A stretch of DNA of 64,000 nt, from the IMG/VR virus record IMGVR_UViG_3300011960_000019; one strand, written 5' to 3'. The position numbers were made by a program, and so were the translations under genes. Shown here piece by piece: positions 8,959 to 56,855 of the stretch (position 1 is the stretch's first letter; every line of letters begins with the position of its first letter). Origin of the DNA: a virus. Lineage: Duplodnaviria > Heunggongvirae > Uroviricota > Caudoviricetes. Under the pieces are notes generated by a model. That model made no database searches. It worked only from the letters and a program-made list of their open reading frames with translations, and was not told the DNA's origin.

Positions 8959-9011
8959 TGATAAATTACGCACATCAGAAAACAAATTGTTTTAATAACA
9001 AGGAAATTCTC

Positions 9012-20319: not shown

Positions 20320-20880
20320 CCTAACCACTGCGGTGAGTAGCCAGCTCACCGCGTGCGTATCCGGCCCATAACCACTGTAGTGAGTAAAACGCCTGCCGTG
20401 ACATCCGGTATCCACTGTAGTGAGTAAAGTGGCGATTATCGACGTCGCTATCCACTGTAGGGAGTAAACAGGCGTTCATCCGCAGCAAACAACCACTATA
20501 GAGAGTGATGGAATGCGTTCTCCAGCGGGTATCCACTATGGAGAGTAAACCTTCACTGTTTTCAGCGGATATCTACTCACTACAGTGGTTAGCAAATCCG
20601 GCCAACCGATTCTGCTCTCCACAGTGGATAGCCAATAACAACGGGAACAACGATAACCACTATAGAGAGTGGATTTAACAAGATACCCAGTGACCACTAA
20701 CCTCGCAGCCCTTGTTTCATCTGGGTTTGTAACCACTAACATTTATTTCGTTATTTGAGCGCTACTACCTACAGTGGTTACTCTTCGGTTGTTGTTACTC
20801 ACTACAGTGGATAGCGGATTTCAGATAAACAAAAGGCTCACTACAGTGGATAGTGAGCCTTTCTACTCTCTACAGTGGTT
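20320..20880. repeat. iteron array (about 14 copies of (A/T)CCACT(G/A)TAG(T/A)GAGTA in both orientations), incA-like copy-control locus downstream of repA
   Basis: Direct reading, e.g. aaccactgtagtgagtaaa, atccactgtagtgagtaaa, atccactatggagagtaaa, and reverse copies tactcactacagtggatagc. Confidence 0.8.
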
Positions 20881-20883
20881 GGG

Positions 20884-21948
20884 CTATTTGCGAGCTTTTG
20901 CCTTGCGTAGCTCTTCGAGAATCGCCAGTTCTTCCTTGCTCAACATGACCATCTCACCGTCTTTTTCTTCAGGAACAACATCGATGATGTCCTCCTGATC
21001 ATCACCAGGCAAGCTATCTTCCTGCTCTTCTGGTTCTTCCGGCGCAGCACTAGCTGGTGGCAATGCCGGGCGTAACTTCGGCCGCCTATAGTGGATGATG
21101 AAGTAGACCGAGCTGCCGCGCTTCACTTCGGTGTAATCGAGATAGCCGATCTCCCGCAGCTGCTCCATCGCCTTCCTGACTGTCGCGTTCTGGGTAATGG
21201 TGCGGCTGGTTAAGTTAAGTCTGGCGCGTAAGCGAGCCAACGAGATTGGTGCCGGGTCAGGTGGCAAACTTTCGATGAAGGTGTAGAGCGCCTGCGCGGA
21301 TTCTTTTCTGGAGAGTTCGTTAATTGCCCGGAGTTGCAGAAGAACCTTTTTGTCGAACTGGTAAAGTTCGAAAATCTTAGGATCAGCCTGCAGCGAGACC
21401 GTGTCGTTCTTTGTGCTGTACTTTGCTGTCTGCACAAGGTGCGTCACGTAATACTCATCAGAGCCTTTACTGCGGAATGAGATAGTGTTTGTGGCAATAC
21501 GAGTTAGAGAACTGTCCAGGCGCTTGCGTAACTTCGCGGACGATCTGGCCGTTGGTATGCCACAGAGCCTGACGAACTCGACGAACGGTAATGTGACAGT
21601 GTCGCCAACAACCTTGTGCTTGGCGAACGCGTGGATGATGCCTACCCACGTTTTGAAGTCGTTATCCATATCCAGACGAACGCCGGAGATCCTTATGTCC
21701 TCGTACCCTTCGGCTTTGGCCAGAGACAGCTGTTTGAGTTCAGCAGAGGCGTCCATAGAGACCATTTGCCCCTTTCTGCCCCTGGCGGTCGATTTCAGCG
21801 TCGGAACGAAGAGACCAAGACGCATCAGAGCAACGGGCTGAACTGTGTTGTTGGTGTTAGGAACTAACGTAACAACTTCACCGGTCTTTTTGTCTGTTTC
21901 TGAGAATGCTTCAACGATCGCTATGTTTTTATTGCCGTTTTCGCTCAT
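20884..21948 (-). CDS. repA: RepA-like iteron-binding plasmid replication initiator
   Basis: 354-aa protein flanked on both sides by iteron arrays. Acidic C-terminal tail. P1/IncY-type replicon architecture. Confidence 0.7.
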
Positions 21949-21959
21949 TCCAAGTATCT

Positions 21960-22265
21960 CTTTTTATTCGACCGCTTTGGTGGCCTTTACTGATTACAGT
22001 GGATAGTAGCACTCATCGCAGCGGTTATCCTACCGCCTATAGTGGTTTTTCTACTCTCTACAGTGGTTGGTTTACTCTTCATAGTGGCTGATCTTCTCTC
22101 TATAGTGGATATCGATCCCCTCTAAAGCCATGTGGCACAACGGTTTGCGGGGTGCGGGGATCTTTTTGGGTCTTTGTGGGTCTCTTTGGTTCTCTTTGGG
22201 ATCTGAATTACTGGATCGGGCCTGTGTATAAAAATCAGGTAATTGCAAAACCAGCTATCACTCCC
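21960..22265. promoter_or_regulatory. origin module copy A: five iterons plus a GATC/GGTCT-repeat AT-rich stretch (oriR-like)
   Basis: Iterons at about 21985-22115 immediately upstream of repA, followed by ggggatctttttgggtctttgtgggtctctttggttctctttgggatctga...ggatcgg. Confidence 0.65.
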
Positions 22266-22384
22266 CTTCTGGGGATAATGTGTGGTCGAAACAAACACGC
22301 CTGAACGCAAAACTTCCAACATCTCTATGAATATCAGCCACCTGCGTAGAAAAACAGGCACTGAGTTATCCAGTTAAGACAATG

Positions 22385-22640
22385 TCTCCTACTCACTACA
22401 GTGGATACCGACCACTCTCCAGAGAGGTTGTTTTGCTCTTCATAGCGGTTATTATGCTCTCTACAGAGGTTACTTTCCTCCCCATAGTGGATAGTAACCC
22501 CCTCTCAGGCCAGTAACCGCAACGGCTGGAGACGATCGGGGATCTCTTTTGATCTTCTGTAGGATCTCTCTGGGGATCTAATTATTGGATCGGTCCTGTG
22601 AATAATGGGTATAAGTAAAACAGGCATTTGCAAACATCGG
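22385..22640. promoter_or_regulatory. origin module copy B (diverged duplicate of copy A with six intact GATC sites)
   Basis: Iterons at 22385-22500, then cgatcggggatctcttttgatcttctgtaggatctctctggggatctaattattggatcgg. The downstream flank aligns with copy A. Confidence 0.6.
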
Positions 22641-40648: not shown

Positions 40649-40789
40649 GTTATTGTCGAAATTGTAGCGTTTATTTGTTTACACATATAAGAAAACAAAT
40701 AAATAACAAGAGCTATAATATCTTGGCTAAGTAGTTGATCGGCCCCCTTAGTCAACCGATTACTGGAACGAGACATTTAAGAGGACAAT

Positions 40790-41980
40790 ATGACGGATAC
40801 AGCTTTTTCGAAATCGTTACAAAAGGAAGTCGACCCCGAGCAGTACTTGGCACTTAAAAATTTAGATGATAGCTCAGTTCATGCTGTCGCTCGTGAAGAC
40901 ATCATCTGTCCAATTTGCAAAGTCGGAGGTGGCTCGTTTGTTAGAGCCTCTAGGAATGATGGTTATCACAAGAAGGCGCATTTCAGATTTACTGGTGAAG
41001 CTGGCCAAGGCCACCATCCATCATGTGACTTCTACGGAGATAGGTTAACATCTGAGGTAAGGCAGCACCTTGTCACATTCACGAAAGATCGAACAAAGTA
41101 TTCGCAGGTAATACGAAAACTGGTATGCGCCGGCATACAGGAAGGGATTTTTACGCAAGAAAAAATGTGGCAGATGAGGGAATGGTTCTTCAATAAGCGT
41201 AAGGACTCCACATTTGAAATATGGCTGGAAAAGGGTCATTTGGATTGGCTTGACTATATTAGCGGGTTACGTGAATCATATTTGGCATGGACAAACCCGG
41301 ATATTATGCCTTTCTCACCCATTCAGGCTACTGTGCCTGGTTTTTCTTGGTCTCGTGCAATTGACAAAGAGGTGCTAAGAGTTCACATCAAGACTCTCCA
41401 GCAATTGCGTAAAATTTCAGTATCCCATAGAGACATTTCGGCAATCTTAGAACACATAGATAATAATCGTGGCCGTGCAATTCTCGACCCATCGCTTTTG
41501 GAAGATGAGATAAATAAGACTTACAAGCTTACTGGGTTTGTGATGAGCAATTACATTGAGTTTAAGACAAAAACGGTTAGCGACAGAGCATATGGAGAGG
41601 CTAAGTTTCTGGCATTTGCCGCACTGCTGTTATTCGTGTCTGATTGGGATCTCAACATTGCTATTGGTAAGTTTTCCAAGATTGCCAGAGTGAAGGAGGT
41701 TGATGACATGCTGGCTGGTAATTTCATTGGTCTTAACCCTTACTTCCGGTACGACGTGGCTAAAGCTGTGAAGAAATTGCAGGATAACTGGCCGATTGAA
41801 TACCAAGAGTTGGAACATTGGGATGTAGAAAAATCTATGCGTGAGGCATATGAAAAGTGGTGTTCGACAGAGCCAGAATTCGCTCCACCTCTTTTACCCG
41901 ACCTGTATGTTACCCAACACGAGAAAGAAGTCGCACGAGACGAGGAAATCAGGCAGTGGATTAAGAACGGAGATGTTTGA
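40790..41980 (+). CDS. hypothetical 396-aa protein with N-terminal Cys/His cluster
   Basis: CPICK...H...HHPSCDFYG suggests a zinc-binding module. The rest is unassignable. Confidence 0.45.
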   Translation: MTDTAFSKSLQKEVDPEQYLALKNLDDSSVHAVAREDIICPICKVGGGSFVRASRNDGYHKKAHFRFTGEAGQGHHPSCDFYGDRLTSEVRQHLVTFTKDRTKYSQVIRKLVCAGIQEGIFTQEKMWQMREWFFNKRKDSTFEIWLEKGHLDWLDYISGLRESYLAWTNPDIMPFSPIQATVPGFSWSRAIDKEVLRVHIKTLQQLRKISVSHRDISAILEHIDNNRGRAILDPSLLEDEINKTYKLTGFVMSNYIEFKTKTVSDRAYGEAKFLAFAALLLFVSDWDLNIAIGKFSKIARVKEVDDMLAGNFIGLNPYFRYDVAKAVKKLQDNWPIEYQELEHWDVEKSMREAYEKWCSTEPEFAPPLLPDLYVTQHEKEVARDEEIRQWIKNGDV

Positions 41981-42417
41981 GCACAACTAGCTTAATCAAT
42001 CCGTTGACATTGGCGGTCACAAATTGAGGATTTCTATAAGAGTCCGTTGATCGCCACTTTCCCCACCTCTCCAACCTACCCCAACCCAGGCGTGACAGGG
42101 CATTTAAGCAAGTTACACCCATAAGAAAACAAATAAATAACATATCAACGAAAAGTCAACGCTTTTCCCTGATTTGGTCTAAAAAGTTGACGTTTTCGCA
42201 CGCCATCTCTTATATCCAAAATCCTGCGCACCAGAATCCATCTCCCTGCGACCAAAACGCCAAAAACGACTCGTGATACCACCCCAAAACAGACACACTC
42301 AGAAGCGCTCCCGTTGCGTTATATTGGACGTCTAAACAAGTTGTTTTCATGCACAAGAAAACAAGTTAACCACACCCACAGGAAACCCAGAGACGCCACT
42401 GCCCACAATCCCGGAAA

Positions 42418-42509
42418 CACCCACCTCTTCCTGTCAGGCTACCGAAAAGACCCACCTCTTTGCCCCAGGCTACAGACCACCCACCTAATCTTCCCAGGCA
42501 ACCGAGAAC
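42418..42509. repeat. three tandem ~30-bp direct repeats ACCCACCTCTT-N5-CAGGCTACCGA
   Basis: Units at 42418-42448, 42449-42477 and 42478-42509. A fourth copy lies at 45650-45684. Confidence 0.7.
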
Positions 42510-42529
42510 GCAGCTCGCGAATGCAAACC

Positions 42530-42800
42530 CCTACACGCCATTACCCAATACACGGAGAAGAACAACCAGAACGAAACCCCGGACAAACCCAGACCAGAAC
42601 AGGAACCGTCGCCATCTCGCTTACCCACCATTACCCCGGAAGAGAACGCAAATTCCTGAATTGCAGGGAACGCCTTTACTTCATATGCGGAGAACAGCAA
42701 AAGCGCCCTACTGCCATTACCCACACTTCCACCATTTCACGTAAACGGAGAGAAAAGCGCACCTGCCATTACTCAATACACGGAGAAGAAAACTCACCAA
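42530..42800. repeat. four spaced copies of (T)GCCATTACCCAATACACGGAGAAGAA-like repeat at ~80-bp intervals
   Basis: Copies beginning at about 42536, 42617, 42711 and 42762. Confidence 0.6.
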
Positions 42801-43127
42801 AACGACGAGAACAACCCAGACGAAAACACAAAGAAGAACCACCTCAAGAAGAACAAAACCACATACGCCGGTAGAGAGAACAAACCACCCATTTCACCCA
42901 AAGGAATACTCGCCGTATAGAGCGTTATCAGGGGGAAGGTTTGCACGTCCACAGGAGAGAAAATCCGTAGAGATTTAACTGGAGGTATAAGTGGGAAGAG
43001 GGAGAGGGGTATCGCTACTTTCTCCGTAGAAATTCAAGCCATAGTTTTCATCCCTCGTAATGTCTCTCTCCACCCCTTCGGTCAACCTTCGGGACATCCA
43101 GGGAAAAGGCCATGTCCCTTTTCAGAA

Positions 43128-43290
43128 ACGGGAGCGTCGCAGCAGGGAAACGGCTGGAGATTTTCAGGGAAACGGTGGGAATCCCGCTATACGAACCGGG
43201 AAAAGGCTGGCTGCCGGTCGGGAAACGGGTACATCCCGGTACAGAGCGAGGGACGGCTGCGGGAGCGGTGCGGGAAATCCTCGGGAGTGC
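43128..43290. repeat. cluster of GGGAAACGG(C/T)(T/G)GG direct repeats
   Basis: agggaaacggctgg, agggaaacggtggg, cgggaaaaggctgg, cgggaaacgggtac, cgggaaatcctcgg. Confidence 0.6.
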
Positions 43291-43392
43291 GCCTTACTCT
43301 TCGCTCGCCTGAAAATCGCGGGGGAGTGTCGTTCCCTCTCGTGCAGCTGCTGAACTCCATTCTGCCAGACCATCCTCGGGTCTCAAGCGATT

Positions 43393-43602
43393 TCAGTAGG
43401 TTTTCGGGGGAGTTTTCTTCTGTTTCTTCTCTTCTCGCAACCTGCGGGCCAATTGCTTGATTTCTTCATCTCGTGCTTTTTGTTTCTTGCCAAGTGGTGT
43501 TTTGGAATGTCTCCATCCGCGCCATGAGCAGTAAACGATTGTGAAAACAATAAGCACGGCATCCCACGAAAGAAAGCCATTTTTGTAGAGCCAGTCGACC
43601 AT
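43393..43602 (-). CDS. small membrane protein with basic C-terminus (69 aa)
   Basis: LIVFTIVYCSW TM segment, then KQKARDEEIKQLARRLREEKKQKK. Confidence 0.4.
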   Translation of the reverse strand: MVDWLYKNGFLSWDAVLIVFTIVYCSWRGWRHSKTPLGKKQKARDEEIKQLARRLREEKKQKKTPPKTY

Positions 43603-43706
43603 TATATACCCCCATTAGATTGCTTAGGTTGTACAACTTATGAGTCGCTTCAGCAATGTAAAAATAGTTGCTGCCCTTGATATTATTCTTTTTCGCCTAT
43701 GTCTTA

Positions 43707-43746
43707 TTGCGATAATAACACCAACAAAAAAACAACGTGTTTAGGC
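43707..43746 (+). promoter_or_regulatory. promoter-leader cassette with extended -10 (TTGCGATAAT) and AAACAA-N-TTGTTT leader
   Basis: ttgcgataataacaccaacaaaaaaacaacgtgtttagg. Confidence 0.55.
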
Positions 43747-43759
43747 AAATGAGAAACAC

Positions 43760-43975
43760 ATGTACGAGCATCTGAATATCAGCATCACTCTCTGTGGCGA
43801 GGAAGCGTCATCCGAGTGTGAGATCTCCCTCGATGACGTTATCCGTTCCCTGGATGTTGCTGGTCGCGTGGCGACGCTCATCTCTGAAGGACGCAGAGAG
43901 GGGACGTTTGATTTCCATATCGAGGACAACCCAATGTCCGTCGCGTGGAACTGCACGACGTCAGAAACGAAGTGA
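43760..43975 (+). CDS. hypothetical protein (71 aa)
   Basis: ORF track. Confidence 0.4.
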   Translation: MYEHLNISITLCGEEASSECEISLDDVIRSLDVAGRVATLISEGRREGTFDFHIEDNPMSVAWNCTTSETK

Positions 43976-45588: not shown

Positions 45589-45740
45589 GAGAACGAGGCC
45601 ACCCATGCCGGTGGCCTTAAATGACCATCCTGTTTCCCGCAGGCTAAAAACACCCACCTCTTGTCGCCAGGCTACCGAACAACCCTCCGACTCCCTGCCG
45701 GCCACCAGCTGCCGGAACAGAACGCTTGGACGCCTTATGC

Positions 45741-45793: not shown

Positions 45794-46276
45794 ATGAACT
45801 TTATCGCTACTGTTAACACCCCTGCGCATGGCCATATTTCTGTGACGTTCTCTGATAACGAGAAAAGCGTGCTGGGCGCCTGGCGTGACAATGTAACCAT
45901 CGAGCTGTCCGGGAAAGAGAAACAGCAGATCACCAATGACATTATCTGCAACCGTCGCCATAAACGCGTATTTGAAAAAGCGTATGTCTCCACTTCGGGA
46001 TTTGGCGTATTCATCTTCCCGGTACGCAGCGGTCGCTTCTGCCAGTCAAAACTCATCGAGTTCGCCACGCAGATCGCGCTATGGGTTAAAACAGAATCCG
46101 GGTTCGACTTCAGCGAACAGGAAGCAGTGGGGGAGGGGATGCGTATCGCCAACAATGCCATCAAGTGCAAAAACGTCACCTACGAAGCAGGAATCGACTC
46201 GTGGAGTGTCTCGTGCGGGGAATACGTGAAAGAGGTGTACGGAAAGAACCGCATTCACATCCTGACTGGCAAGTAA
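45794..46276 (+). CDS. hypothetical protein (160 aa)
   Basis: Terminator at 46280-46310. Confidence 0.45.
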   Translation: MNFIATVNTPAHGHISVTFSDNEKSVLGAWRDNVTIELSGKEKQQITNDIICNRRHKRVFEKAYVSTSGFGVFIFPVRSGRFCQSKLIEFATQIALWVKTESGFDFSEQEAVGEGMRIANNAIKCKNVTYEAGIDSWSVSCGEYVKEVYGKNRIHILTGK

Positions 46277-46334
46277 GAGGGGAGGGGCTGGAAACGCCCC
46301 TTTCTTTTCGTCCACCAGCTGCCGCAGGGATATT

Positions 46335-46405
46335 CAGAAACGGCCAGAGGGCTGTCCGGGGAACCGAAGGGAAACGGCCAGGGAATTTTCGGGAAACGGC
46401 TGGGT
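46335..46405. repeat. second cluster of GGGAAACGGC direct repeats
   Basis: cagaaacggccagagg, agggaaacggccaggg, cgggaaacggctgggt. Confidence 0.55.
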
Positions 46406-46920
46406 TTGCCTTTATGTAGAAAACAGAGCGGGAGAAGTCCAGAATCCTGCCAGAAAATATCGCAGGGGCGCTGGGGTAACGCTGGTGGAGTTTCAGCCCC
46501 TGAGCCATCCAGATAGCTTTCGCTATGTGATTATGTGAATCCGTGGGTAAACCACTGCAAGCGCGTACACGTCGCGCCAACGTGCCAATGATACGCGAGC
46601 GCCCACGGATAGCGCCAACATTGCCGACACGTCCCGAAGGATAGCGCGGATCACGTCGCCAGCTATCGCCAGACGATCACGCCCACGACACGACAAAATA
46701 AACCACGCGCTAAAACGCTGTAAAACGCGCTATAACGTGTTTTTTATTGTGGGTAATGGGTATGACCACCACACATAAAAACGCGTTAAATTGGCGCGTT
46801 TATGGCGCTTATTTTGGGTCTGTTTTGGCTGACTTCAGACAATAAAAAACGCGCCAACAATGGCGCGTTATGATGTGCGGATCTTGAAACGAAAAAAGCG
46901 CCCACTATGGGCGCTATTGC

Positions 46921-48148: not shown

Positions 48149-48712
48149 TTAAAACGGTAAAATCCGTTCGACCCAATCGAACATGACGACTGTCTTCCGA
48201 CCGTCCCCCATGTTGAGCGTGACCTGGCAAGCGTCAACGCCTGAAGACACACCCTCAATTTCACGGCCATCCGCCATGTAGACCCTTATAGACTTCTGCA
48301 TCTCATGAGCCTGGCGACAAATTTTGAAGAAATCACGGCGAGATGGCCGATTGTCCACATAGTCTGGGTGTACCGTTGTCCGACCCGTGAAATCGTGCGC
48401 AATGCCTTCTGTCACACCTGATTCAATCGTACTGATTCGCTCAAGTGGGAGCCTTATACGATTTTCTTTGTCGAACGGGGCAGGGCAAAGGTCGACTTTG
48501 TTGCGCGACGACATGAGACCCTGAACGTACATGCAGAACACCTGACCATCTTCCATCGTGACCCTTACAGGAATGAGAGACTTACGCCAGAACATCAGCG
48601 CCTTCTCCACGTTGGTGTAATCGCGCGGCCAGACTTCTGCAGGAATCCCGTAGGTGATGTCAGTAATATTCGTCATATCGTCACAGTGTCGTTGGTAGGA
48701 TATCGATGTCAC
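48149..48712 (-). CDS. hypothetical protein (175-187 aa)
   Basis: ORF track. The start may be the internal Met at 48676. Confidence 0.4.
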   Translation of the reverse strand: MTSISYQRHCDDMTNITDITYGIPAEVWPRDYTNVEKALMFWRKSLIPVRVTMEDGQVFCMYVQGLMSSRNKVDLCPAPFDKENRIRLPLERISTIESGVTEGIAHDFTGRTTVHPDYVDNRPSRRDFFKICRQAHEMQKSIRVYMADGREIEGVSSGVDACQVTLNMGDGRKTVVMFDWVERILPF

Positions 48713-49443: not shown

Positions 49444-51003
49444 TTACTCTCTATTCAAAACAGTGAAATCGAATGTGCTACCCACCGGCAAAACGCCCTC
49501 GGCAAACCCAGGCGTCGTGTCGATAATGTGCTTCCGCTCATATGAATGCGACATGAGATATTTGTTGCTCACGTCGATAAAGTCGGTAATAAAGCACACG
49601 TTAGCCTGATTCTTTTTGGCTCGAAGACCGCGACCAACACGTTGGCGCATCTCAACTTCGGCTTTGCCGCCACCACCCAGAATCACCGCCCCTACGCTTG
49701 GAACGTCGACACCAACATCCAGAATGGTTGAACCAATCAGAACATCTATCTTGCCTGCCGCCAGACTGTTGAGCTTTGCTTGTCGGGTAGTCTGGTTTGA
49801 TTCTCCGTAGATGAAATCGACCTTCAGGCCGCTTTCCTTCATCATTTCCATCAAAATCTGACCATGACGCTTCAAACGAACCAGCGTCATACAGTTCAGA
49901 CCGTGACTTTTGTACATTAACGCTTCGCGCACAATAGCCTCGTTGCGGCCCAGATTGTAAACGATGCCTAACTGATAGGCTTTCTGGTAAGCCGTACTCA
50001 TTCCAACCCGAAAGTTCAGGTGTTTCGAAGCAAGTTCAGCCCTAATCCGCACCTCGTCTGGAGTGTACGCGATTTTATGATATAGAAAGTATGGTTTCGC
50101 TAAAATACCTCGATCGATCAAATATTTCTCCGTTACCTTTATCTCAATGCGGCCGGCAACGGCCATGAGACGCATATTTGCCTCGGTCGAGTCCTTCATG
50201 AACGGCGTAGCTGTCAGCGCCAGACGGTAATCGGCATTGATGCACAACCGGGCGATATCGTAGAAGTTTGAACCAGATGATTCGTGTGCCTCTTCCAGAA
50301 TCAGCAGAGAAACGCTGGACAGAAAGCGCTTAACCAGTTCCCGGCGCTTCAGGTGGTACTGTTTTTTCTCCGGTGATGCGTCGCGCGGTGGCTCTTCGAG
50401 AAAACTGGCCAGGGTCTGCACCGTGGCAACGTTGATATGGCGCGAGACCTGGAACTCACCAGATCCAATCACCCCAACTTTCTGGCCTTTCAGCCACGGC
50501 TCGCCATTCTCCGCGCGGTAATCGATGGATTTCTGGAAGTTCTCTGCCATCTGGAACATCAGAACCGAGCGCGTGGTTAAAAACAGCGTCATACGACCAA
50601 TGCGAGCAGCTGCCTTACACGCTACGTTCGATTTACCGCCACCCGTCGCAATCTGGGCAATCATCATCCCTTCGCGCACCAGTGTTTCCACAGTCTGATC
50701 CTGATACGCATAGTCCGGGTTATACGGGAATGGGTTAACTACCGGGTTCGGCTTGCCCAGCGCGGGGGCTTTTTCCTTGCGCACATGCACGCATTTGATG
50801 CCAGCTTTCAGAAGGTTGGCCGCTACTGGCTTCGCAAACCCAGCCGGGAACGCGTTTTTGCTCCAGTTGAACATCGTGCTGGTTCCTTTCCAGTCACCAG
50901 CCTCCACTTCATAGCTCAACATCTCCTGAACGAGCCGTTTCACGTTGTCATCAGCGCCAGAAATCAGCGCATTGACTGCATTCGATACAATCCGAACTGT
51001 CAT
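49444..51003 (-). CDS. SF2 DEAD/DEAH-box family DNA helicase
   Basis: Motif I ATGGGKSN, motif II LILEEAHE, motif III TATP, motif VI QRVGRGLR. Confidence 0.8.
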   Translation of the reverse strand: MTVRIVSNAVNALISGADDNVKRLVQEMLSYEVEAGDWKGTSTMFNWSKNAFPAGFAKPVAANLLKAGIKCVHVRKEKAPALGKPNPVVNPFPYNPDYAYQDQTVETLVREGMMIAQIATGGGKSNVACKAAARIGRMTLFLTTRSVLMFQMAENFQKSIDYRAENGEPWLKGQKVGVIGSGEFQVSRHINVATVQTLASFLEEPPRDASPEKKQYHLKRRELVKRFLSSVSLLILEEAHESSGSNFYDIARLCINADYRLALTATPFMKDSTEANMRLMAVAGRIEIKVTEKYLIDRGILAKPYFLYHKIAYTPDEVRIRAELASKHLNFRVGMSTAYQKAYQLGIVYNLGRNEAIVREALMYKSHGLNCMTLVRLKRHGQILMEMMKESGLKVDFIYGESNQTTRQAKLNSLAAGKIDVLIGSTILDVGVDVPSVGAVILGGGGKAEVEMRQRVGRGLRAKKNQANVCFITDFIDVSNKYLMSHSYERKHIIDTTPGFAEGVLPVGSTFDFTVLNRE

Positions 51004-51085: not shown

Positions 51086-51766
51086 ATGGATGTGAAAATT
51101 ACGATTCTGCAGGTGGAAGTCGCGAACCTGCGTCCGAATCCCTGGAATACCAACTCCGTTGGGGCGCAAAACTTCGAAAAACTGAAAGGCTCTATCGAAA
51201 AATTGGGCTTTTTTAAGCCAATTCTGGCGCGGGAGCTGGACGGGGGCGTTTTTGAGATCCTCGGTGGCGAACACCGCTGGCGTGCCGCGATGGAGCAGGG
51301 CATTTCAACGGTTCCCGTCATCTCCGTGGGCAAAATTAACGACCTGGTGGCCAAACAGATGTCCCTCGTCGATAACGAGCGCTACGGCGAAGACGATCAG
51401 GTCGCTTTGCAGCGCTTAATCGAAGAAATCCAGTCTGAAATCGACTACCGGTTGTCCGATATCGCCCCGTATGACGACGAAATGGCGGCAACACTCGCCA
51501 AAGCGTCCGTTATCGATCTTGAGGCGCTGGAAGCGCTCTCCCGTGGCGATGACGAGCCGGTCGATAAGGACAAACGCGAGAAAACCGAGCGAGTCGGCGC
51601 TGAACACCAGACGATGCGTTTCAAAGTGACGTTTGATGCGTCAGATCGCGTCGCCGACACCATCAAAACCATCATCAAAGAGCAGGGAATCAATACCGGT
51701 AACGAAATGGAGAACGCCGGGGAAGCCCTGGTGTGGCTGGTCGACTACTACAAGGAGCGTATGTAA
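51086..51766 (+). CDS. ParB/Srx-like nuclease-domain protein 1
   Basis: LRPNPWN...FEILGGEHRWRAAMEQGISTVPVI is the ParB N-terminal domain signature. Confidence 0.7.
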   Translation: MDVKITILQVEVANLRPNPWNTNSVGAQNFEKLKGSIEKLGFFKPILARELDGGVFEILGGEHRWRAAMEQGISTVPVISVGKINDLVAKQMSLVDNERYGEDDQVALQRLIEEIQSEIDYRLSDIAPYDDEMAATLAKASVIDLEALEALSRGDDEPVDKDKREKTERVGAEHQTMRFKVTFDASDRVADTIKTIIKEQGINTGNEMENAGEALVWLVDYYKERM

Positions 51767-52434
51767 TGACCAAAAACTTTGAAATCGTCTATCGAAACCC
51801 GGCAGAACTCATCCCGTATGAGATGAACGCCAAAAAACATGACGAACAGCAGATCCGCGACCTGGCGGCCGCCATCAAAAAGCGCGGTTTTGACCAGCCG
51901 ATCACGGTCGACAAGCATGACGTCATCATTACTGGCCACGGTCGTCGCGAGGCGGCTCTTCTGGCTGGTCTGGAGCGTGTGCCGGTCATCGTTCGCGACG
52001 ATCTGAGCGAAGAAGAAGTGAAGGCGAAGCGTCTGGAAGACAACCGCCTGGCCAGTATTGACTACGACGCCATCAAATTGCAGCAGGAACTGGAATCCCT
52101 GGTGCTGGGAGAGGTCGAGGTCTTCGGTTTTGAAGAGCGCGAGCTGAACGTGCTTGTTGGTAGCATGACCGAAGAGATGGAAACCGGCTCTCTGGTGCTC
52201 GATCTGGGCGAAGAGACGGAACGCCAGAAAGAAGAGCACACCGAGATCAGTCGCGAAGTGGCCTCTGAAGAAGTCCGCGTCATCGACGTATTGGGCTTTA
52301 AAACGCTCCCTGCTGGCTCTGCCATTGTGGTTGGGGATTTGCTTGCCCACATGGAAGAAATCACGGGAGAGAGCGGGGTAGACGCTTTCGTGGCGTATGC
52401 GGAGAAAGTTTCTTCTGGGGAGCTGGCTGCATGA
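51766..52434 (+). CDS. ParB/Srx-like nuclease-domain protein 2
   Basis: YEMNAKKHDEQQIRDLAAAIKKRGFDQPITV...ITGHGRREAALLAGLERVPVIV. TAATG overlap with the previous gene; the frame is open from 51733. Confidence 0.65.
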   Translation: MTKNFEIVYRNPAELIPYEMNAKKHDEQQIRDLAAAIKKRGFDQPITVDKHDVIITGHGRREAALLAGLERVPVIVRDDLSEEEVKAKRLEDNRLASIDYDAIKLQQELESLVLGEVEVFGFEERELNVLVGSMTEEMETGSLVLDLGEETERQKEEHTEISREVASEEVRVIDVLGFKTLPAGSAIVVGDLLAHMEEITGESGVDAFVAYAEKVSSGELAA

Positions 52435-53069: not shown

Positions 53070-53253
53070 TTTGAAGATCGTAGAGCTGAAGCCATCTAAA
53101 GAGGCTGACAACAACAACGTTGAAGTCATCCGCCTGCTTGAAGAAGCACTCCAGTACGCCAGAGAAGGCAAAAGCCAGAGCCTGGCGCTGCTGATGATCA
53201 ACAACGACGGCAGTGTTCTGGATTGCTGGCATAACGGTGGCCGATCAGTTGGA
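53062..53253 (+). CDS. small ORF coupled to the ABC ATPase (about 63 aa of plausible sequence)
   Basis: ATGCCTGA overlap with the ATPase stop. The track ORF continues to 53523, but in the alternative frame over the tape-measure fragment. Confidence 0.3.
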
Positions 53254-54325
53254 AAACAGCTGGAGCAACCTGTTCAGCAACATGACGGATACGCTGACCG
53301 ACTTCGTCATGAAGGGGAAATTGGACTTCTCCAGCCTAGCAGAATCCATTCTCCGCGACATCACCAACATGGTTGTGAAGACGCAGATCACCCTGCCTCT
53401 CATGAACATGCTGGGGATGGGGACGACGGCAGCGGGCAGCTCTCAGAGTGGCAATCTGCTTTCTGGTGTCGCGTCAGCGGTTGCCAACCAAGGCGTCCGG
53501 ATGAATGCGGTCAACGGCGATAAGAGCGTGGGTGAGGCGACGAAAGAGACCTCCAGCTCGGTCTCCGGTCTGGGGCAGACCACTCAGCAGACGACCAGCG
53601 CGATTGGCTCTGCAACCAACGCGATCGGCAGCTGGGTGAATGGACTGTTCACCAGTACTGAAGCCAAAGACGCGGAAACCAAAGCGGTGAAGACATCCAT
53701 CTTCTCCATGCAGAACCTTAGCTCTGTCACGGGGGCGCTTTCTGCCGCGTTTGCCATGCTGGGCGCAAACATGTCCGGCTCTGGCAATAAGTGGTTGAGC
53801 TTCGGCGCTACCATTGCCTCCGGGCTGGTGTCTGCCTGGGCTGGTGGCGGCTTCGACAACATCGGATCGGGTTCATCCGGCTCTAACTCCGGGTTCAACA
53901 ATCTCACCGGATCGGCATCTGATGGTACTGGCGGCATCCCGGCAATTCCGAAGTTCGCCAAAGGCGGCATTTTCGGGAAAGACGGCGTGGTTCCGCTGCG
54001 TGCGTACCAGAAAGGTGGCATCGCTGACTCTCCACAGCTGGCGCTGTTTGGTGAAGGGGATATGAACGAAGCCTACGTTCCGCTTCCGGATGGGCGTTCC
54101 ATCCCGGTCACGCTCAACGCAGAGGGTGTTAAAGGCGGCGGTGGCGTTTTCTCACCTGTCAGCATTGAGATCAACGTCAACAGCGACGGCAGTGTCTCGG
54201 AGAACAGCAATTCCGAAGGCGCATGGAGTCAGGCAGCGCAGCGCATGAAGGCGATCGCGCTTGAAACCATCGCTCAGGAGAAGCGGCCAGGCGGTTCGCT
54301 CAACCCTAACTCTCAACGTAACTAA
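53213..54325 (+). pseudogene. C-terminal fragment of tail tape-measure protein (lambda gpH-like)
   Basis: - Gly/Ser-rich, with a GKDGVVPLRAYQKGGIADSPQLALFGEGDMNEAYVPLPDGRSIPVTLNAEG tail typical of the gpH C-terminus.
- Only 370 aa; the frame opens at 53198 with no ATG or RBS.
- Sits directly upstream of the M-L-K-I-J genes. Confidence 0.6.
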
Positions 54326-54366
54326 CCACGGCTGCCCCGGAAGGGGCAGTCTCACAAGGATGTGAG

Positions 54367-54702
54367 ATGGAAAGACTGACTTTTAACTGGTATCCCGACT
54401 ACGAGTCGGAAAAGACCGTGAAGCCTAACGTGACGGTGCTGAATTTCGGTGACGATTACGAACAGCGCCAGGCCAAAGGTCTCAATCGCATTAAAGAAGA
54501 GTGGAGCCTGACATTTACGCGCTCTTACGACGTTATTAATGCCGTCGATGACTTTCTGACGGCACGCGCGGCCGTTGAGTCGTTCTACTGGATGAATCCT
54601 CGTGGCAAAAAGATGGTTGTGGTGTGCGACAGCCATACTGTGAAGCGTTACCAGGGCTATCTCGTTCTCACTGCGACCTTCCGACAAATTTATGAAGGAT
54701 AA
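54367..54702 (+). CDS. minor tail protein M (lambda gpM-like)
   Basis: 111 aa in the canonical position after the tape measure. Recognisable by position and size; MERLTFNWYPDYESEKTVKPNVTVLNFGDDYEQRQAKGLN. Confidence 0.65.
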   Translation: MERLTFNWYPDYESEKTVKPNVTVLNFGDDYEQRQAKGLNRIKEEWSLTFTRSYDVINAVDDFLTARAAVESFYWMNPRGKKMVVVCDSHTVKRYQGYLVLTATFRQIYEG

Positions 54703-54791
54703 TTTAACCCACTAGATAAGTAAGCACTTATTTACTATCATCTATAGGCGCTGACAGGATGTTGGCGTCTCTTTATTTCAAGGAAGAAACG

Positions 54792-55490
54792 ATGGGTATT
54801 AAAGCTGATATTCAGAGCTTGTCGCCCTCCGCGCTCATTGAGCTGTTCGAACTTGATATGTCGAACACCACCTCTGGGGGCAAGCTGTTTTTCCACGCTG
54901 GTACAAACGAACTGATGGAGCCAGTCGTTTGGCAAGGCGTGTCTTACGAACCGTGGCCAATCAAGGCGTCAGGCTTTGATAAGACTGGTCAGGGTACTTT
55001 GCCGCGTCCAAAAATCCAGGTCTCCAACTTTGCCGGAACTGTCTCCGCTGAAGTTCAGGCAAACGACGATCTGGTGGGCTGCCGCATCATCCGCAAGATG
55101 ACGCTGGCGCGTTTTCTCGACGCGGCCAACTTCAAAGACGGGAATCCAACCGCAGATCCAAATCAGCACTTCCCGGATGAGATGTGGTTCATCGAACAGA
55201 AGACTCTCGAAACCCATGAGGTTGTCGAGTTTGAGCTGTCGAGTGTGTTCGATCTGATGGGCGTGCAACTGCCGTACCGCCAGATCATCAAAAACACCTG
55301 CCCGTGGAAATACCGCGGTCCAGAGTGCGGCTACACCGGCCCCTATTTCGACAAAAACAACCAGCAAACCACCATGTCAGGCGCGGATTACTGCACGAAA
55401 CGCTACGACTCATGCAACGCACGCCGTAACTACTTTGCCAATGGCGTAATCCACTTTGGCGGGTTCATTGGAGCAACGCGTTATGGGTAA
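54792..55490 (+). CDS. minor tail protein L (lambda gpL-like)
   Basis: C-terminal Cys cluster CPWKYRGPECGY...CTKRYDSCNARRNYFANG typical of gpL. RBS aaggaag. Confidence 0.75.
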   Translation: MGIKADIQSLSPSALIELFELDMSNTTSGGKLFFHAGTNELMEPVVWQGVSYEPWPIKASGFDKTGQGTLPRPKIQVSNFAGTVSAEVQANDDLVGCRIIRKMTLARFLDAANFKDGNPTADPNQHFPDEMWFIEQKTLETHEVVEFELSSVFDLMGVQLPYRQIIKNTCPWKYRGPECGYTGPYFDKNNQQTTMSGADYCTKRYDSCNARRNYFANGVIHFGGFIGATRYG

Positions 55491-56280
55491 TAGAGCTTTC
55501 CCTGAGCTTGGTTCGGACGTTATGCAGGAAATCTATCTGACAGCCATCAAACGCTACCCGAACGAAGCGTGTGGCTTTCTGGTGCGTACCACTGGCGAGA
55601 AATATTGCTTCATGGAAGCCCGGAACGTGTCGGAAAACCCGGAAAACACGTTTGTTATGCACGCTGACGACATTATCGCAGCGGAAGATGCGGGATACGT
55701 GGTTGCCATCTGGCACTCCCACACTGACGAATCAGCTGAAGCGTCATACGCCGACCGCGCCGGATGCGAGGCAACGGAAGTTCCGTGGCTGATTCTGGCT
55801 GTTAGGAAGAATGTCGAGGGCGATGCGCCATTTCACTTCAGTGAGATGAATGTGATCACCCCAGACGGCTTTGAGATGCCTTATCTGGGGCGGCCCTATG
55901 TGTTTGGTGTCTTCGACTGCTGGATGCTGTGCCGCGACTACCTGAAGCGTGAGTTCAACGTCGAGTTGAATCCAAACCCGCACCTGCATATTCCATCGTG
56001 GTACACGGGCGATACCGACATTCTCGACCAGAACTACCGCAATGAAGGGCTTGTTCGTCTGGCGCCGGGGACGGAACCCCAGCGTGGTGACGTCTTCTTC
56101 ATTCAGTACGGAAAGATGCCTGACCACTGCGCGGTGTACATCGGAGACGGAATGATCCTGCACCACCAGATCGACCGTCTGAGCTGTCGCGCTTATTACG
56201 GTGGCATGTACCAGAAACACACGACGCACCACCTGCGTCACAGAGACTTACTCAAGGGAGATGAAACGTGTCTGAGTTAG
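55483..56280 (+). CDS. tail assembly protein K (MPN/JAMM + NlpC/P60 domains)
   Basis: JAMM motif AIWHSHTDESAEAS, and an NlpC/P60 Cys/His pair (FDCWMLCRDY...MILHH). Confidence 0.8.
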   Translation: MGNRAFPELGSDVMQEIYLTAIKRYPNEACGFLVRTTGEKYCFMEARNVSENPENTFVMHADDIIAAEDAGYVVAIWHSHTDESAEASYADRAGCEATEVPWLILAVRKNVEGDAPFHFSEMNVITPDGFEMPYLGRPYVFGVFDCWMLCRDYLKREFNVELNPNPHLHIPSWYTGDTDILDQNYRNEGLVRLAPGTEPQRGDVFFIQYGKMPDHCAVYIGDGMILHHQIDRLSCRAYYGGMYQKHTTHHLRHRDLLKGDETCLS

Positions 56281-56855
56281 TTCATGTGCAACTTGGTGGC
56301 CCGATGGCCAGACATTTCGGCCGCCACTGGCATTTAAAAGTGCGCAACACCAAACAGGCGTTGGATTTGGTCGAAGCCAATCGTCCGGGCTTAAAAGCAT
56401 GGATGAAGCGCAACATGAAGACCTACGACAGTTACCACATCCAGATCACCAATAAGCAGGGACACAAGTGGTCGGTTGATGAGAGCGAGTTTCAAATGAT
56501 GGGGCAGTCCGACAACATCGCGAAGATCCGCATCACACCGGTTCCTCGCGGTAGTGGCGGTAAGGCTTTTGGTTGGTTCCAGACAGTCGTAGGGGCACTC
56601 GTCATGGTTGCCTCATTCTGGTTCCCAGCGCTGGCCCCGCTCGGCTTGTCGCTAATGATGGGCGGTATTTCGCAGCTAATTTCGCCCCAGGCGACCAATG
56701 ACAGCGTAAGGCAGGCAGATAACTCGAACTCGTTTTATTTCGACGGGCCACAAAACACCACTAACCAGGGCAACCCGGTTCAGCTCATTTATGGCGAGGA
56801 AATTCTGGTCGGCTCACAGGTTGTGAGTTCTTCGATCACCATCGACCAGCTTTAG
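56268..56855 (+). CDS. tail assembly protein I (lambda gpI-like)
   Basis: Ubiquitin-like N-terminus plus a hydrophobic C-terminal segment. Canonical position between K and J. Confidence 0.7.
   Translation: MSELVHVQLGGPMARHFGRHWHLKVRNTKQALDLVEANRPGLKAWMKRNMKTYDSYHIQITNKQGHKWSVDESEFQMMGQSDNIAKIRITPVPRGSGGKAFGWFQTVVGALVMVASFWFPALAPLGLSLMMGGISQLISPQATNDSVRQADNSNSFYFDGPQNTTNQGNPVQLIYGEEILVGSQVVSSSITIDQL

Follow-up and report, generated by a model that had tools for sequence, protein, structure and literature searches.

A conserved, A/C-rich non-coding region at the cargo border of SSU5/pHCM2-type phage-plasmids, a candidate early control region

The untranslated leaders of the lambda early transcripts (nutL, and nutR-tR1 with rutA and rutB) consist of C-rich and G-poor RNA behind repressor-controlled early promoters, in an early gene cluster that contains many terminators. 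A short motif is present at two early transcription units and varies in concert between related phages, and in nutL and nutR this concerted change fits one trans-acting partner. The plasmid-prophages P4, N15 and P1 possess long untranslated immunity leaders with short repeats (the CI RNA with seqA/seqC and timm, and the c4 RNA), and in the P4 leader Rho-dependent premature termination is the controlled step. At R-loop origins (T4 oriF/oriG, ColE1 RNA II) a promoter drives an untranslated transcript into a purine- or G-rich segment. Here we describe a region that resembles each of these in part. It occupies positions 41981-43392 of a 64,000-nucleotide (nt) stretch of DNA, referred to as the window, from a virus of the Caudoviricetes (IMG/VR record IMGVR_UViG_3300011960_000019), and the host element of the window is an SSU5/pHCM2-type phage-plasmid. 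Our analysis shows that the region is non-coding and under strong purifying selection, and we tentatively read it as an early control region, repressed in lysogeny, whose untranslated and unstructured leader would load Rho and insulate cargo from early genes.

Phage-plasmids of this type are common in clinical Klebsiella, Escherichia coli, Enterobacter, Salmonella and Citrobacter and carry resistance and defence cargo. The region offers a handle on how such cargo is separated from lytic gene expression, or on how lytic replication is started, and if its RNA does engage Rho, mobile elements would have a novel means of dealing with the factor that chiefly silences foreign DNA in the host.

Conservation and coding potential of the region

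The region is bounded by the stop of a 396-amino-acid (aa) open reading frame (ORF; stop at 41980) and the stop of a minus-strand 69-aa ORF (43393). Its 1412 nt are 99.8% identical to the Enterobacter hormaechei plasmid pMS-37c and 92.8% identical to Salmonella phage SSU5, and a sensitive search matched it, at identities down to ~66%, in 859 plasmid records from Klebsiella, Escherichia, Enterobacter, Salmonella, Citrobacter, Cronobacter and other genera; it is also found in phages SSU5 and Cyrano. In most of the 859 records PGAP has placed no annotated feature beneath the match, and the region is undescribed in the searchable literature. A counterpart is absent from pSg1-3, a member of another phage-plasmid family that shares the neighbouring 131-aa protein. 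A scan of a genome collection with ACCTCTTNNNNNCAGGCTA returned chance matches only, and a scan of viral contigs for paired GGGAAACGG returned family members mixed with chance matches.

In order to assess coding potential and constraint, 67 related loci from viral contigs, collected with an invariant 25-mer, were combined with annotated records and reduced to 39 sequences less than 97% identical; a distant relative, L203, was recovered via its 160-aa protein (49% identity). No ORF of at least 45 aa is kept in position and frame on either strand among these 39 non-redundant homologues, which bears out the claim of a preliminary description, made from the letters of the window, that the span lacks a convincing ORF. 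The same description had taken a 186-aa ORF (42314-42874) for a low-complexity artefact, rightly on this evidence, as it is restricted to the window and its close relatives. A 66-aa ORF called by PGAP (43112-43312) was likewise rejected as a gene; it overlies the GGGAAACGG cluster described below and is unconserved across clades.

The absence of a conserved reading frame is accompanied by conservation over nearly the full length of the region, whose three thirds are 70-72% identical to Cyrano and 76-82% identical to a Klebsiella element. Between the window and Cyrano the four-fold degenerate sites of neighbouring genes are saturated (36% identity over 223 sites in the helicase, 34% in the 160-aa gene), nucleotide similarity is undetectable in two adjoining small genes, and the 131-aa neighbour shows a protein identity of just 42-50%. 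As the region is ~70% identical where the four-fold sites of its neighbours are ~35% identical, it is under strong purifying selection, and at ~1.3 kb it is among the best-conserved non-coding sequences of the family.

Among the 39 homologues this conservation is blocky. Blocks lie at 42003-42056 (up to 96%), at 42122-42215 (~90%), at 42296-42370 and in the first two of three 30-nt repeats, with further blocks represented by ACGCCATT.CCCAA, by GCCATTACTC.ATACAC.GAGAAGAA, by CCGTATAGA, by TATAAG...GAGGGG..TCGC...ATTCAA and by the GGGAAACGG copies; such blocks, for example TTTCTATAAGANNNCGTTGATCGCC, provide a family-specific marker. L203 has a gene-free interval at the same place with its elements in the same order, beginning with TTTCTATAAG...GTTGATC, a module-like A-rich block, ATCAACG/GTCAA/TTGAC and TTGACA-17-TTATAC, and continuing with an A/C-rich body that contains three ~30-nt repeats and TGCCAT units, purine-rich tracts, AAATTCAAGC and four GGGAAACGG copies.

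The genes upstream of the region vary by lineage and include a Cys/His-rich protein of 396 aa (phrog_12525; 40790-41980, plus strand), DUF262 with a type I restriction-modification system, DUF1380 proteins, a coiled-coil protein and MetRS. Since these genes differ between lineages, the left edge of the region is the border of a cargo hotspot, and the region is the junction of variable cargo genes with the conserved early-gene cluster.

Composition, repeats and transcription

The 1-kb bin 42001-43000 is the extreme outlier of the window in base composition, with G-C of -127, A-T of +175 and a keto-minus-amino difference of -302, where the remaining bins range from -53 to +67 for G-C and do not fall below -126 for keto-minus-amino. 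This reflects an A/C-rich and G/T-poor body (42167-42919, plus strand) in which A+C amounts to 69-75% in every clade including L203, the commonest class of mismatch being A<->C. As A+C is held in all clades while the sequence drifts, the composition itself is maintained, and selection on nucleotide composition itself is rare. The plus-strand RNA of 42220-42900 has a predicted minimum free energy (MFE) of -100.8 kcal/mol, in comparison with -208 +/- 16 for 13 other 681-nt segments, and is thus 6.9 standard deviations (SD) weaker in folding; the minus-strand RNA is ordinary (MFE -199.8). With a stretch called similar to a Rho utilisation site, or rut-like, when C is at least 30%, G at most 18% and C at least twice G per 78 nt, the body forms one continuous rut-like stretch of 753 nt, C-rich, G-poor and untranslated, more than four times as long as the next-longest on the plus strand of the window (179 nt). 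It therefore provides what is expected of a rut site, namely RNA that is untranslated and unstructured over ~80 nt or more and contains clearly more C than G. YC, CA and ACA are enriched 1.5- to 2.5-fold in the region. All repeat families and modules are direct on the plus strand, which is the strand of the flanking genes. A double-stranded protein-binding site leaves this strand bias unexplained, which points to the region acting as a single strand, most simply as RNA.

Such an RNA does not appear to be a structured one, as had been listed among the possibilities. At the gathering score of Rfam 15 the sole match in the window is a tRNA (1174-1245), with nothing meaningful at E<=10 in 41500-43900, and no covariation-supported helix was found on either strand by RNAalifold windows, by an all-pairs helix scan of 39 sequences or by manual inspection, which rules out a structured non-coding RNA (ncRNA) in this sense. 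A role as a CsrA sponge was rejected, given 32 GGA where 21 are expected from the window average, a similar figure on the other strand and positions that are unconserved in the E. coli clade.

Transcript data are available from strand-specific RNA-seq of E. coli LF82 carrying Cyrano, as a per-gene table for five conditions (PMC9928086), one strain under non-lytic conditions. The plus-strand gene directly upstream of the region, CYRAN_102, reaches log2(FPKM+5) values (FPKM, fragments per kilobase per million) of 5.6-9.2, in comparison with 2.3-4.3 for the plus-strand pseudo-ORF CYRAN_103, where the floor is 2.32, 2.6-4.7 for CYRAN_104 and up to 7.8 for CYRAN_105, the next real gene downstream (PMC9928086). 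CYRAN_103 starts 111 nt past the CYRAN_102 stop and covers the equivalent of 42105-42465 of the window, and CYRAN_104 is equivalent to ~42985-43385. The plus-strand RNA of the region is therefore low in the lysogen, and its own putative promoters are off in lysogens and macrophages. No site resembling an intrinsic terminator was found from the CYRAN_102 stop to a purine/pyrimidine hairpin ~970 nt further on, and none follows the 396-aa gene in the window. With a fall from 9.2 to the floor within ~110 nt and no terminator-like site, rightward RNA is lost at the left border of the region with no hairpin terminator present; a transcript drop in the absence of an intrinsic terminator, as at Rho-dependent terminators, is thus seen in Cyrano, in this one strain and under non-lytic conditions.

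The repeats reported in the preliminary description are present, with some correction. Three tandem ~30-nt repeats of the form ACCCACCTCTT-N5-CAGGCTACCGAAAAG lie on the plus strand at 42418-42508 (copies at 42419, 42450 and 42480) and are 71-77% identical, the first two being near-invariant in the family; Tandem Repeats Finder at score 30 reports nothing in the region because the repeats are too divergent. The units that had been given as four copies of GCCATTAC...CGGAGAAGAA about 80 bp apart take the form GCCATTAC(C/T)C-N-ATACACGGAGAAGAAC on the plus strand within 42537-42795, clear at 42537, 42672 and 42765 and degenerate at 42627 and 42713. Relatives have a further degenerate unit at 42397, and the spacing is irregular (140/90/45/42/51 nt), so that the units stand and the ~80 bp is approximate. 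The best-conserved unit is that at 42763-42790, with related units in L203; GCCATTAC by itself is not above chance in the window, and we count the family as real because of its 26-nt unit and the conservation of that unit across clades. Five plus-strand copies of GGGAAA(A/C)GG, the GGGAAACGG cluster, were found as described, slightly to the left of the 43128-43290 first given, at 43101-43228, with spacings of 44, 22, 31 and 22 nt and degenerate copies to ~43275. GGGAAAMGG occurs 7 times in the window against 0.86 expected, a count reached by no shuffle, and every clade, L203 included, strictly keeps the motif, while its spacing varies (34, 24 and 33 nt in L203). The repeats are present in all related elements, which agrees with the earlier proposal that they mark a functional non-coding locus, their absence from relatives having been named as what would speak against it.

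Two of the families have second copies further downstream. In the window the 30-nt motif recurs nowhere but at 45624-45680, ~3.2 kb downstream, where a plus-strand cluster (45599-45723, copies at 45624 and 45652) separates the terminator of a 93-aa gene from the promoter module that precedes the 160-aa gene. The second site of GGGAAACGG is confined to a pair at 46369 and 46391 (46345-46493), in the same orientation as in the region, directly after the terminator of the 160-aa gene and C-rich when read on the minus strand. Both second sites are kept in the Cyrano, SSU5, Klebsiella, Salmonella and E. coli lineages (six clades) and in L203. The second 30-nt cluster is rut-like on the plus strand and the second GGGAAACGG cluster on the minus strand, in each case the strand of transcripts heading into the 160-aa gene. 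In L203 both sites have CACCACTC as the first half of the 30-nt motif, where most clades have ACCCACCTCTT, and this change in concert suggests a single trans-acting partner for the motif.

The 160-aa gene itself (45794-46276, plus strand; phrog_1641) occurs in this phage-plasmid family alone, with 71-78% conservation from clade to clade. Its protein has a confident AlphaFold model (predicted local distance difference test, pLDDT, 89; predicted template modelling score, pTM, 0.77) and matches no Pfam family and, by Foldseek, no PDB fold (best E 0.4), on which grounds we rejected a ToxN-like toxin and a recognisable DNA or RNA binder. A type III toxin-antitoxin system resembling ToxIN was rejected too, as the 160-aa protein matches neither a Pfam family nor a PDB fold and the repeats are just 71-77% identical. 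An exact 13-mer, CCACCAGCTGCCG, which holds the complement of Chi, forms a direct repeat on the plus strand that flanks this gene (45702-45714 and 46312-46324, 610 bp apart).

The left part of the region contains a series of promoter-like elements. The most conserved 55 bp (block a, 42000-42058, plus strand), which form the left boundary of conserved synteny, comprise the putative promoter P1, CCGTTGA repeats at 42001 and 42044 and an invariant TCTATAAGAG, with 96% identity in columns 42031-42055 of the 39 homologues. P1 (42004-42031, plus strand) consists of a -35 element TTGACA (42004-42009), a 16-nt spacer and a -10 element GAGGAT (42026-42031), and TTGACA-16-GAGGAT/GATTCT is found in 38/40 sequences, L203 not among them. 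Readings of block a as an Xer/cer-like site, a sigma-54 promoter, an RfaH-ops element or a DnaA box were partial matches by eye that are not kept in L203 and were discarded. An inverted repeat, CGAAAAGTCAAC / GTTGACGTTTTCG, followed by the promoter-like P2 occupies 42150-42216 on the plus strand and is near-invariant across clades. P2 (42187-42216, plus strand) has an A-tract, a -35 element TTGACG (42187-42192), a 17/18-nt spacer and TTATAT/TATATC at 42210-42216, and in a sigma-70 scan mapped to the alignment TTGACG-17/18-TTATAT/TATATC is present in all homologues; in L203 the corresponding TTGACA-17-TTATAC keeps hexamers and spacing with a diverged spacer and a T-tract upstream. At the right end a leftward sigma-70-like promoter (43359-43386, minus strand) reads TTGAGA, a 16-nt spacer and TGgCAGAAT, an extended -10, and occurs in 27/40 homologues, with variants in the L030 clade and in L203 and other sequence in the SSU5 clade.

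Between the promoters and the repeats lies a copy of a promoter and 5' untranslated region (UTR) module of early genes (P3; 42313-42375, plus strand), with a -10-like TATATT (42320-42325), the palindrome AAACAAGTTGTTT (42334-42346) and AAGAAAACAA (42355-42364), after which there is no ribosome-binding site or start codon. A variant of the module, TTACACCCATAAGAAAACAAATAAATAACA (42113-42145, plus strand), has a paralogue at 40679-40708, ahead of the 396-aa gene (93% identity over 30 nt, 100% over 22 nt). AAGAAAACAA is over-represented on the plus strand upstream of genes, at 8976, 18342, 35533, 36256, 39385, 43726, 44316, 45271 and 45763, with variants at 40689, 42123 and 42355, and its module precedes at least 9 small plus-strand genes, in the layout of a terminator tail CGCCTTTT, N12-13, gcGATAATaAC, aCCAAC, AAGAAAACAAnTTGTTTAa and an ATG 8-20 nt further on. 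As the module holds the palindrome AAACAAnTTGTTT, early genes could share in it an operator or a site of translational control. The window also encodes, at 48149-48676 on the minus strand, a 175-aa protein that matches the Pfam family Flag1_repress (FljA) with an E of 4.5e-97. FljA binds RNA and represses the translation of flagellin mRNA, and the FljA-like protein might control the shared early-gene 5' UTR module or host motility; a likeness of the region to the fliC 5' UTR, the FljA target, was rejected, as the region and the E. coli leader have just two 8-mers in common, roughly what chance would give.

Near the right end of the body a polypurine tract, GGGAAGAGGGAGAGGGG (42993-43009), pairs with a pyrimidine tract, CTTTCTCC (43018-43025), in a plus-strand hairpin (42993-43025) that folds in 28/30 distinct homologues. 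The tract stays purine-only in all clades though its sequence varies, and the register of the hairpin slips between clades, which accounts for the lack of column covariation. The hairpin resembles a terminator where CGTATTTATTC or a U-rich run follows, as in the E. coli, Klebsiella and L006 clades, and is called as such in Cyrano. A minus-strand terminator at 42205-42175 was dismissed, its U-run being lost in L203.

What goes beyond the earlier description from the window is thus the bias of the strand towards A+C, the presence of promoter-like elements, the recurrence of two repeat families downstream and the family-wide purifying selection. Some observations concern the surroundings. The 69-aa ORF (43393-43602, minus strand), with a hydrophobic N-terminus and a lysine/arginine-rich tail, belongs to this lineage only, and in its place E. 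coli and Klebsiella relatives have a conserved non-coding stretch of ~190 bp, with TTATTGCGATAATAACACCAACAAG at its end before the following gene. Chi, GCTGGTGG, occurs 17 times in the window against 1.8 expected, which no shuffle reached, with 0 copies in the region of this window and one at the right edge of its version in the E. coli and Klebsiella clades. An intergenic interval between convergent genes at 46420-46920 contains tandem 10-mers (CGCTAAAACG/CTGTAAAACG/CGCTATAACG), GGATAGCGC repeats and several AACGCGCCAA...TTGGCGCGTT hairpins; in its L203 counterpart (10700-11150) there are tandem 8-mers (CTAAAYNG, about ten), GATC palindromes and a stretch rich in A+T. The plasmid pMS-37c is colinear with the window around the region and not throughout. 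The window is a mosaic relative to this plasmid (NZ_CP053193.1), the closest complete one, plasmid segments without a megablast match falling at window ~29065 (plasmid 92.7-101.2 kb, including nrdAB), ~12692 and ~17906, and 53243-56820 has diverged from it too far for megablast.

Candidate functions of the region

The reading that we put forward, as possible though short of probable, is that of an early control region which is repressed in lysogeny and whose leader, untranslated and unstructured, would load Rho and insulate the cargo from the early genes. The left ~370 bp would hold the rightward promoters P1 and P2 and the early-gene module with overlapping protein-binding sites, all shut in the lysogen. 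When released these promoters would transcribe an untranslated leader of 0.8-1.0 kb made up of nearly A and C alone, which, being C-rich, G-poor and without self-pairing, would be a substrate for Rho loading. Rightward transcripts entering the region, whether cargo read-through or its own, would be uncoupled from ribosomes and terminated, and the region would thus serve as a polarity zone or insulator before the early lytic genes. The 30-nt and GCCATTAC motifs may be binding sites of a co-evolving phage factor that modulates termination in the manner of the lambda nut sites, and the same 30-nt motif would guard the second transcription unit 3.2 kb downstream. The purine/pyrimidine hairpin would mark the 3' end of the unit, and the GGGAAACGG array (CCGUUUCCC on the opposite strand) together with the leftward promoter would handle transcription from the right. 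We infer the promoter activity, the Rho dependence, the binding of a factor and the antitermination logic alike.

Several observations weigh against this proposal. Rho loading needs ~80-100 nt and not 750, and it leaves unexplained both the depletion of U besides G and the conserved 26-nt blocks. The -10 element of P1 is weak, that of P2 is without T at -7 and that of P3 is kept in some clades only. The 30-nt repeats contain no boxB-like hairpin, we identified no N-like protein, and the region's own GGGAAACGG cluster falls below the rut-like threshold on the minus strand. The low level of RNA in the lysogen equally fits an untranscribed element that acts at the DNA level. In Klebsiella elements, finally, the upstream genes point away from the region, so that insulation of cargo is not the whole story.

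The main alternative, which we consider unlikely, is that the region acts in cis, as DNA, in lytic replication, either as an origin activated by transcription or an R-loop or as a replication enhancer, comparable to T4 oriF/oriG and ColE1; an auxiliary or lytic origin had been listed in the preliminary description. Repressed promoters would here, again improbably, drive untranslated RNA into the polypurine tract and the G clusters, the RNA-DNA hybrid would be processed to a primer and the repeats would bind replication proteins. A complex, conserved and ORF-free region with promoter-like elements that is silent in the lysogen is consistent with such a role, as are the purine-only tract at 42993-43009 with G-rich repeats downstream and a local GC skew that turns from negative to positive near 42900. 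Members of the family possess a replisome of their own, with no lytic initiator recognised, including a UvsW-type helicase (49444-51003), RNase H, a 5'-3' exonuclease, Pol III alpha, a DnaB-like helicase and a primase, and two sites with the same repeats recall ori and crr of P4. The region has no A+T-rich unwinding element, however (GC 45-60%), its repeats are all direct on one strand with no dyad symmetry outside 42150-42198, and the GGGAAACGG spacing is unconserved in L203 and hence shows no constant helical phasing. At the scale of the window the cumulative skew has no turning point here, the A/C-rich RNA is mostly not purine-rich and the stability of a hybrid would therefore be ordinary, and 46420-46920, as a candidate lytic origin or centromere, is more classical in its features than the region. 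We regard it as very improbable that the region is a double-stranded scaffold of protein-binding repeats, such as a partition centromere, a packaging site or an incompatibility determinant. Several direct-repeat families, GGGAAACGG spacings in the window near multiples of a helical turn and two ParB_N-domain proteins (51086-52434) would suit one. These are nonetheless the nearest ParB_N-domain genes, lie 8 kb from the region and match the N-terminal domain only, and the plasmid's ParA-type ATPase is outside the neighbourhood in the sister plasmid and in Cyrano. The words ATTTCAC and TCGCCA, which had been likened to P1 parS boxes, are at chance level (16 ATTTCAC in the window against 10.7 expected, 81 TCGCCA, with 2 copies of either word in the region at distances of hundreds of bp), and the 21-nt parS core (GTGAAAT-CGCCA-CG-ATTTCAC) has no match with up to 3 mismatches. 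We therefore rejected a P1-type parS centromere, there being neither a core nor an adjoining cognate ParA/ParB operon. An incompatibility locus is contradicted by the position of the 19-nt RepA iteron CTCNCTACAGTGGWTA (CTACTCACTACAGTGGATA), ~19 close-matching copies of which lie in both orientations at 20322-20881 and 21987-22493 around repA (~20884-21948, minus strand), making up the plasmid-prophage replicon. With all iterons at 20322-22493 and none in 41981-43392, an iteron plasmid origin or RepA-titrating locus was rejected, as was GGTCACAAATTGAGG as a RepA iteron, the true iterons being unrelated to it. Nothing supports a packaging site, the terminase genes being ~12 kb away, and a double-stranded scaffold would leave the conserved strand-specific A+C bias over 900 nt unexplained; the spacing of the repeats is also unconserved.

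RNA-level alternatives to an early control region were also considered. A trans-acting, unstructured long ncRNA that is made early in the lytic cycle and soaks up a host factor binding single-stranded RNA (Rho, or else Hfq, S1 or an ACA-cutting endoribonuclease toxin) seems to us rather improbable, and a shade more so the specific form in which the A/C-only transcript is a phage decoy that sequesters Rho or another factor and lifts the Rho silencing of phage operons, an RNA counterpart of P4 Psu. The look of a self-contained unit, with promoter-like elements, a body of 0.8-1 kb and a closing hairpin that in several clades resembles a terminator, would accommodate a decoy, as would a composition kept beyond mere sequence, the 6.9 SD weaker folding and the enrichment of YC, CA and ACA, and inhibition of Rho is known to benefit phages, for example through P4 Psu. 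Yet an untranslated Rho substrate tends to be terminated short of its full length, GGA motifs of the CsrA type are neither enriched nor conserved, the copying of two motif families beside another gene argues for a role in cis, and we know of no precedent for an RNA decoy of Rho. We give a similarly low probability to a sense/antisense switch, in which P1/P2 and the convergent leftward promoter would transcribe the same 1.3 kb and the resulting A/C-only and G/U-rich RNAs, with little internal structure, would anneal fast, so that transcriptional interference or duplex formation sets a lysis-lysogeny or timing decision. Most clades, L203 among them, keep the leftward extended -10 site, the opposite end has conserved promoter-like sites that point rightward and neither transcript has an ORF, but the SSU5 clade has unrelated sequence in place of the leftward promoter, the minus-strand RNA folds like average sequence, no minus-strand terminator is conserved (the 42205-42175 candidate is without its U-run in L203) and the plus-strand RNA is at the floor in the lysogen. 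Least probable of all, in our view, is that the region has no function of its own, being made of decayed small gene cassettes of terminator plus promoter module, or that it encodes a structured RNA of an undescribed family. Module-like fragments inside the region (42113-42145 and 42313-42375, and another in L203) do recall such remnants; they are opposed by purifying selection far above that at synonymous sites and by the conserved composition, and a structured RNA by the absence of an Rfam match and of covariation.

Comparison with known systems

The region is like the lambda early leaders in its untranslated C-rich and G-poor RNA behind putative repressor-controlled promoters, in the many terminators of the early gene cluster and in a motif that is present at two sites (42419/42450/42480 and 45624/45652) and changes at both in concert. 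Unlike them it is ~10 times longer, carries the motif two or three times per site and is depleted in U as well, and it lacks a boxB-type hairpin, a match to the boxA consensus and an identified N-like protein; the 30-nt repeats allow at most a 3-bp CCU/AGG pairing, and CGCTC at 42306 is followed by a palindrome whose pairing is lost in the E. coli clade. With the P4, N15 and P1 immunity leaders it has in common a long untranslated leader with short repeats on a plasmid-prophage, but it is 3-4 times longer and those leaders need a complementary segment (seqB; a', b'). Neither the window nor 36 kb of the sister plasmid yielded a trans-antisense target or a sequence complementary to any of the repeats, which sets the region apart from P1 c4 and the P4 CI leaders.

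CsrB/RsmZ and CrcZ, as sponge RNAs, are also non-coding and reiterate short motifs in a single-stranded context, but the region is much longer and has no hairpin-presented GGA, the motif being neither enriched nor conserved. The likeness to P1 parS is limited to isolated ATTTCAC and TCGCCA words, with no A2-B2-A3 core and no P1-type ParB recognised nearby. The R-loop origins come closer, as the region has promoter-like sites, a putative untranslated transcript and a purine/G-rich segment on an element that encodes a UvsW-type helicase and RNase H; the region differs in having neither an A+T-rich unwinding element nor a folded preprimer, and in an antisense promoter that lies at the far end and not at the 5' end. 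The nearest known kinds are Rho-dependent early leaders with nut-like sites and R-loop origins, from which the region is distinguished by its size, its conserved composition of A and C alone and the architecture of its repeats.

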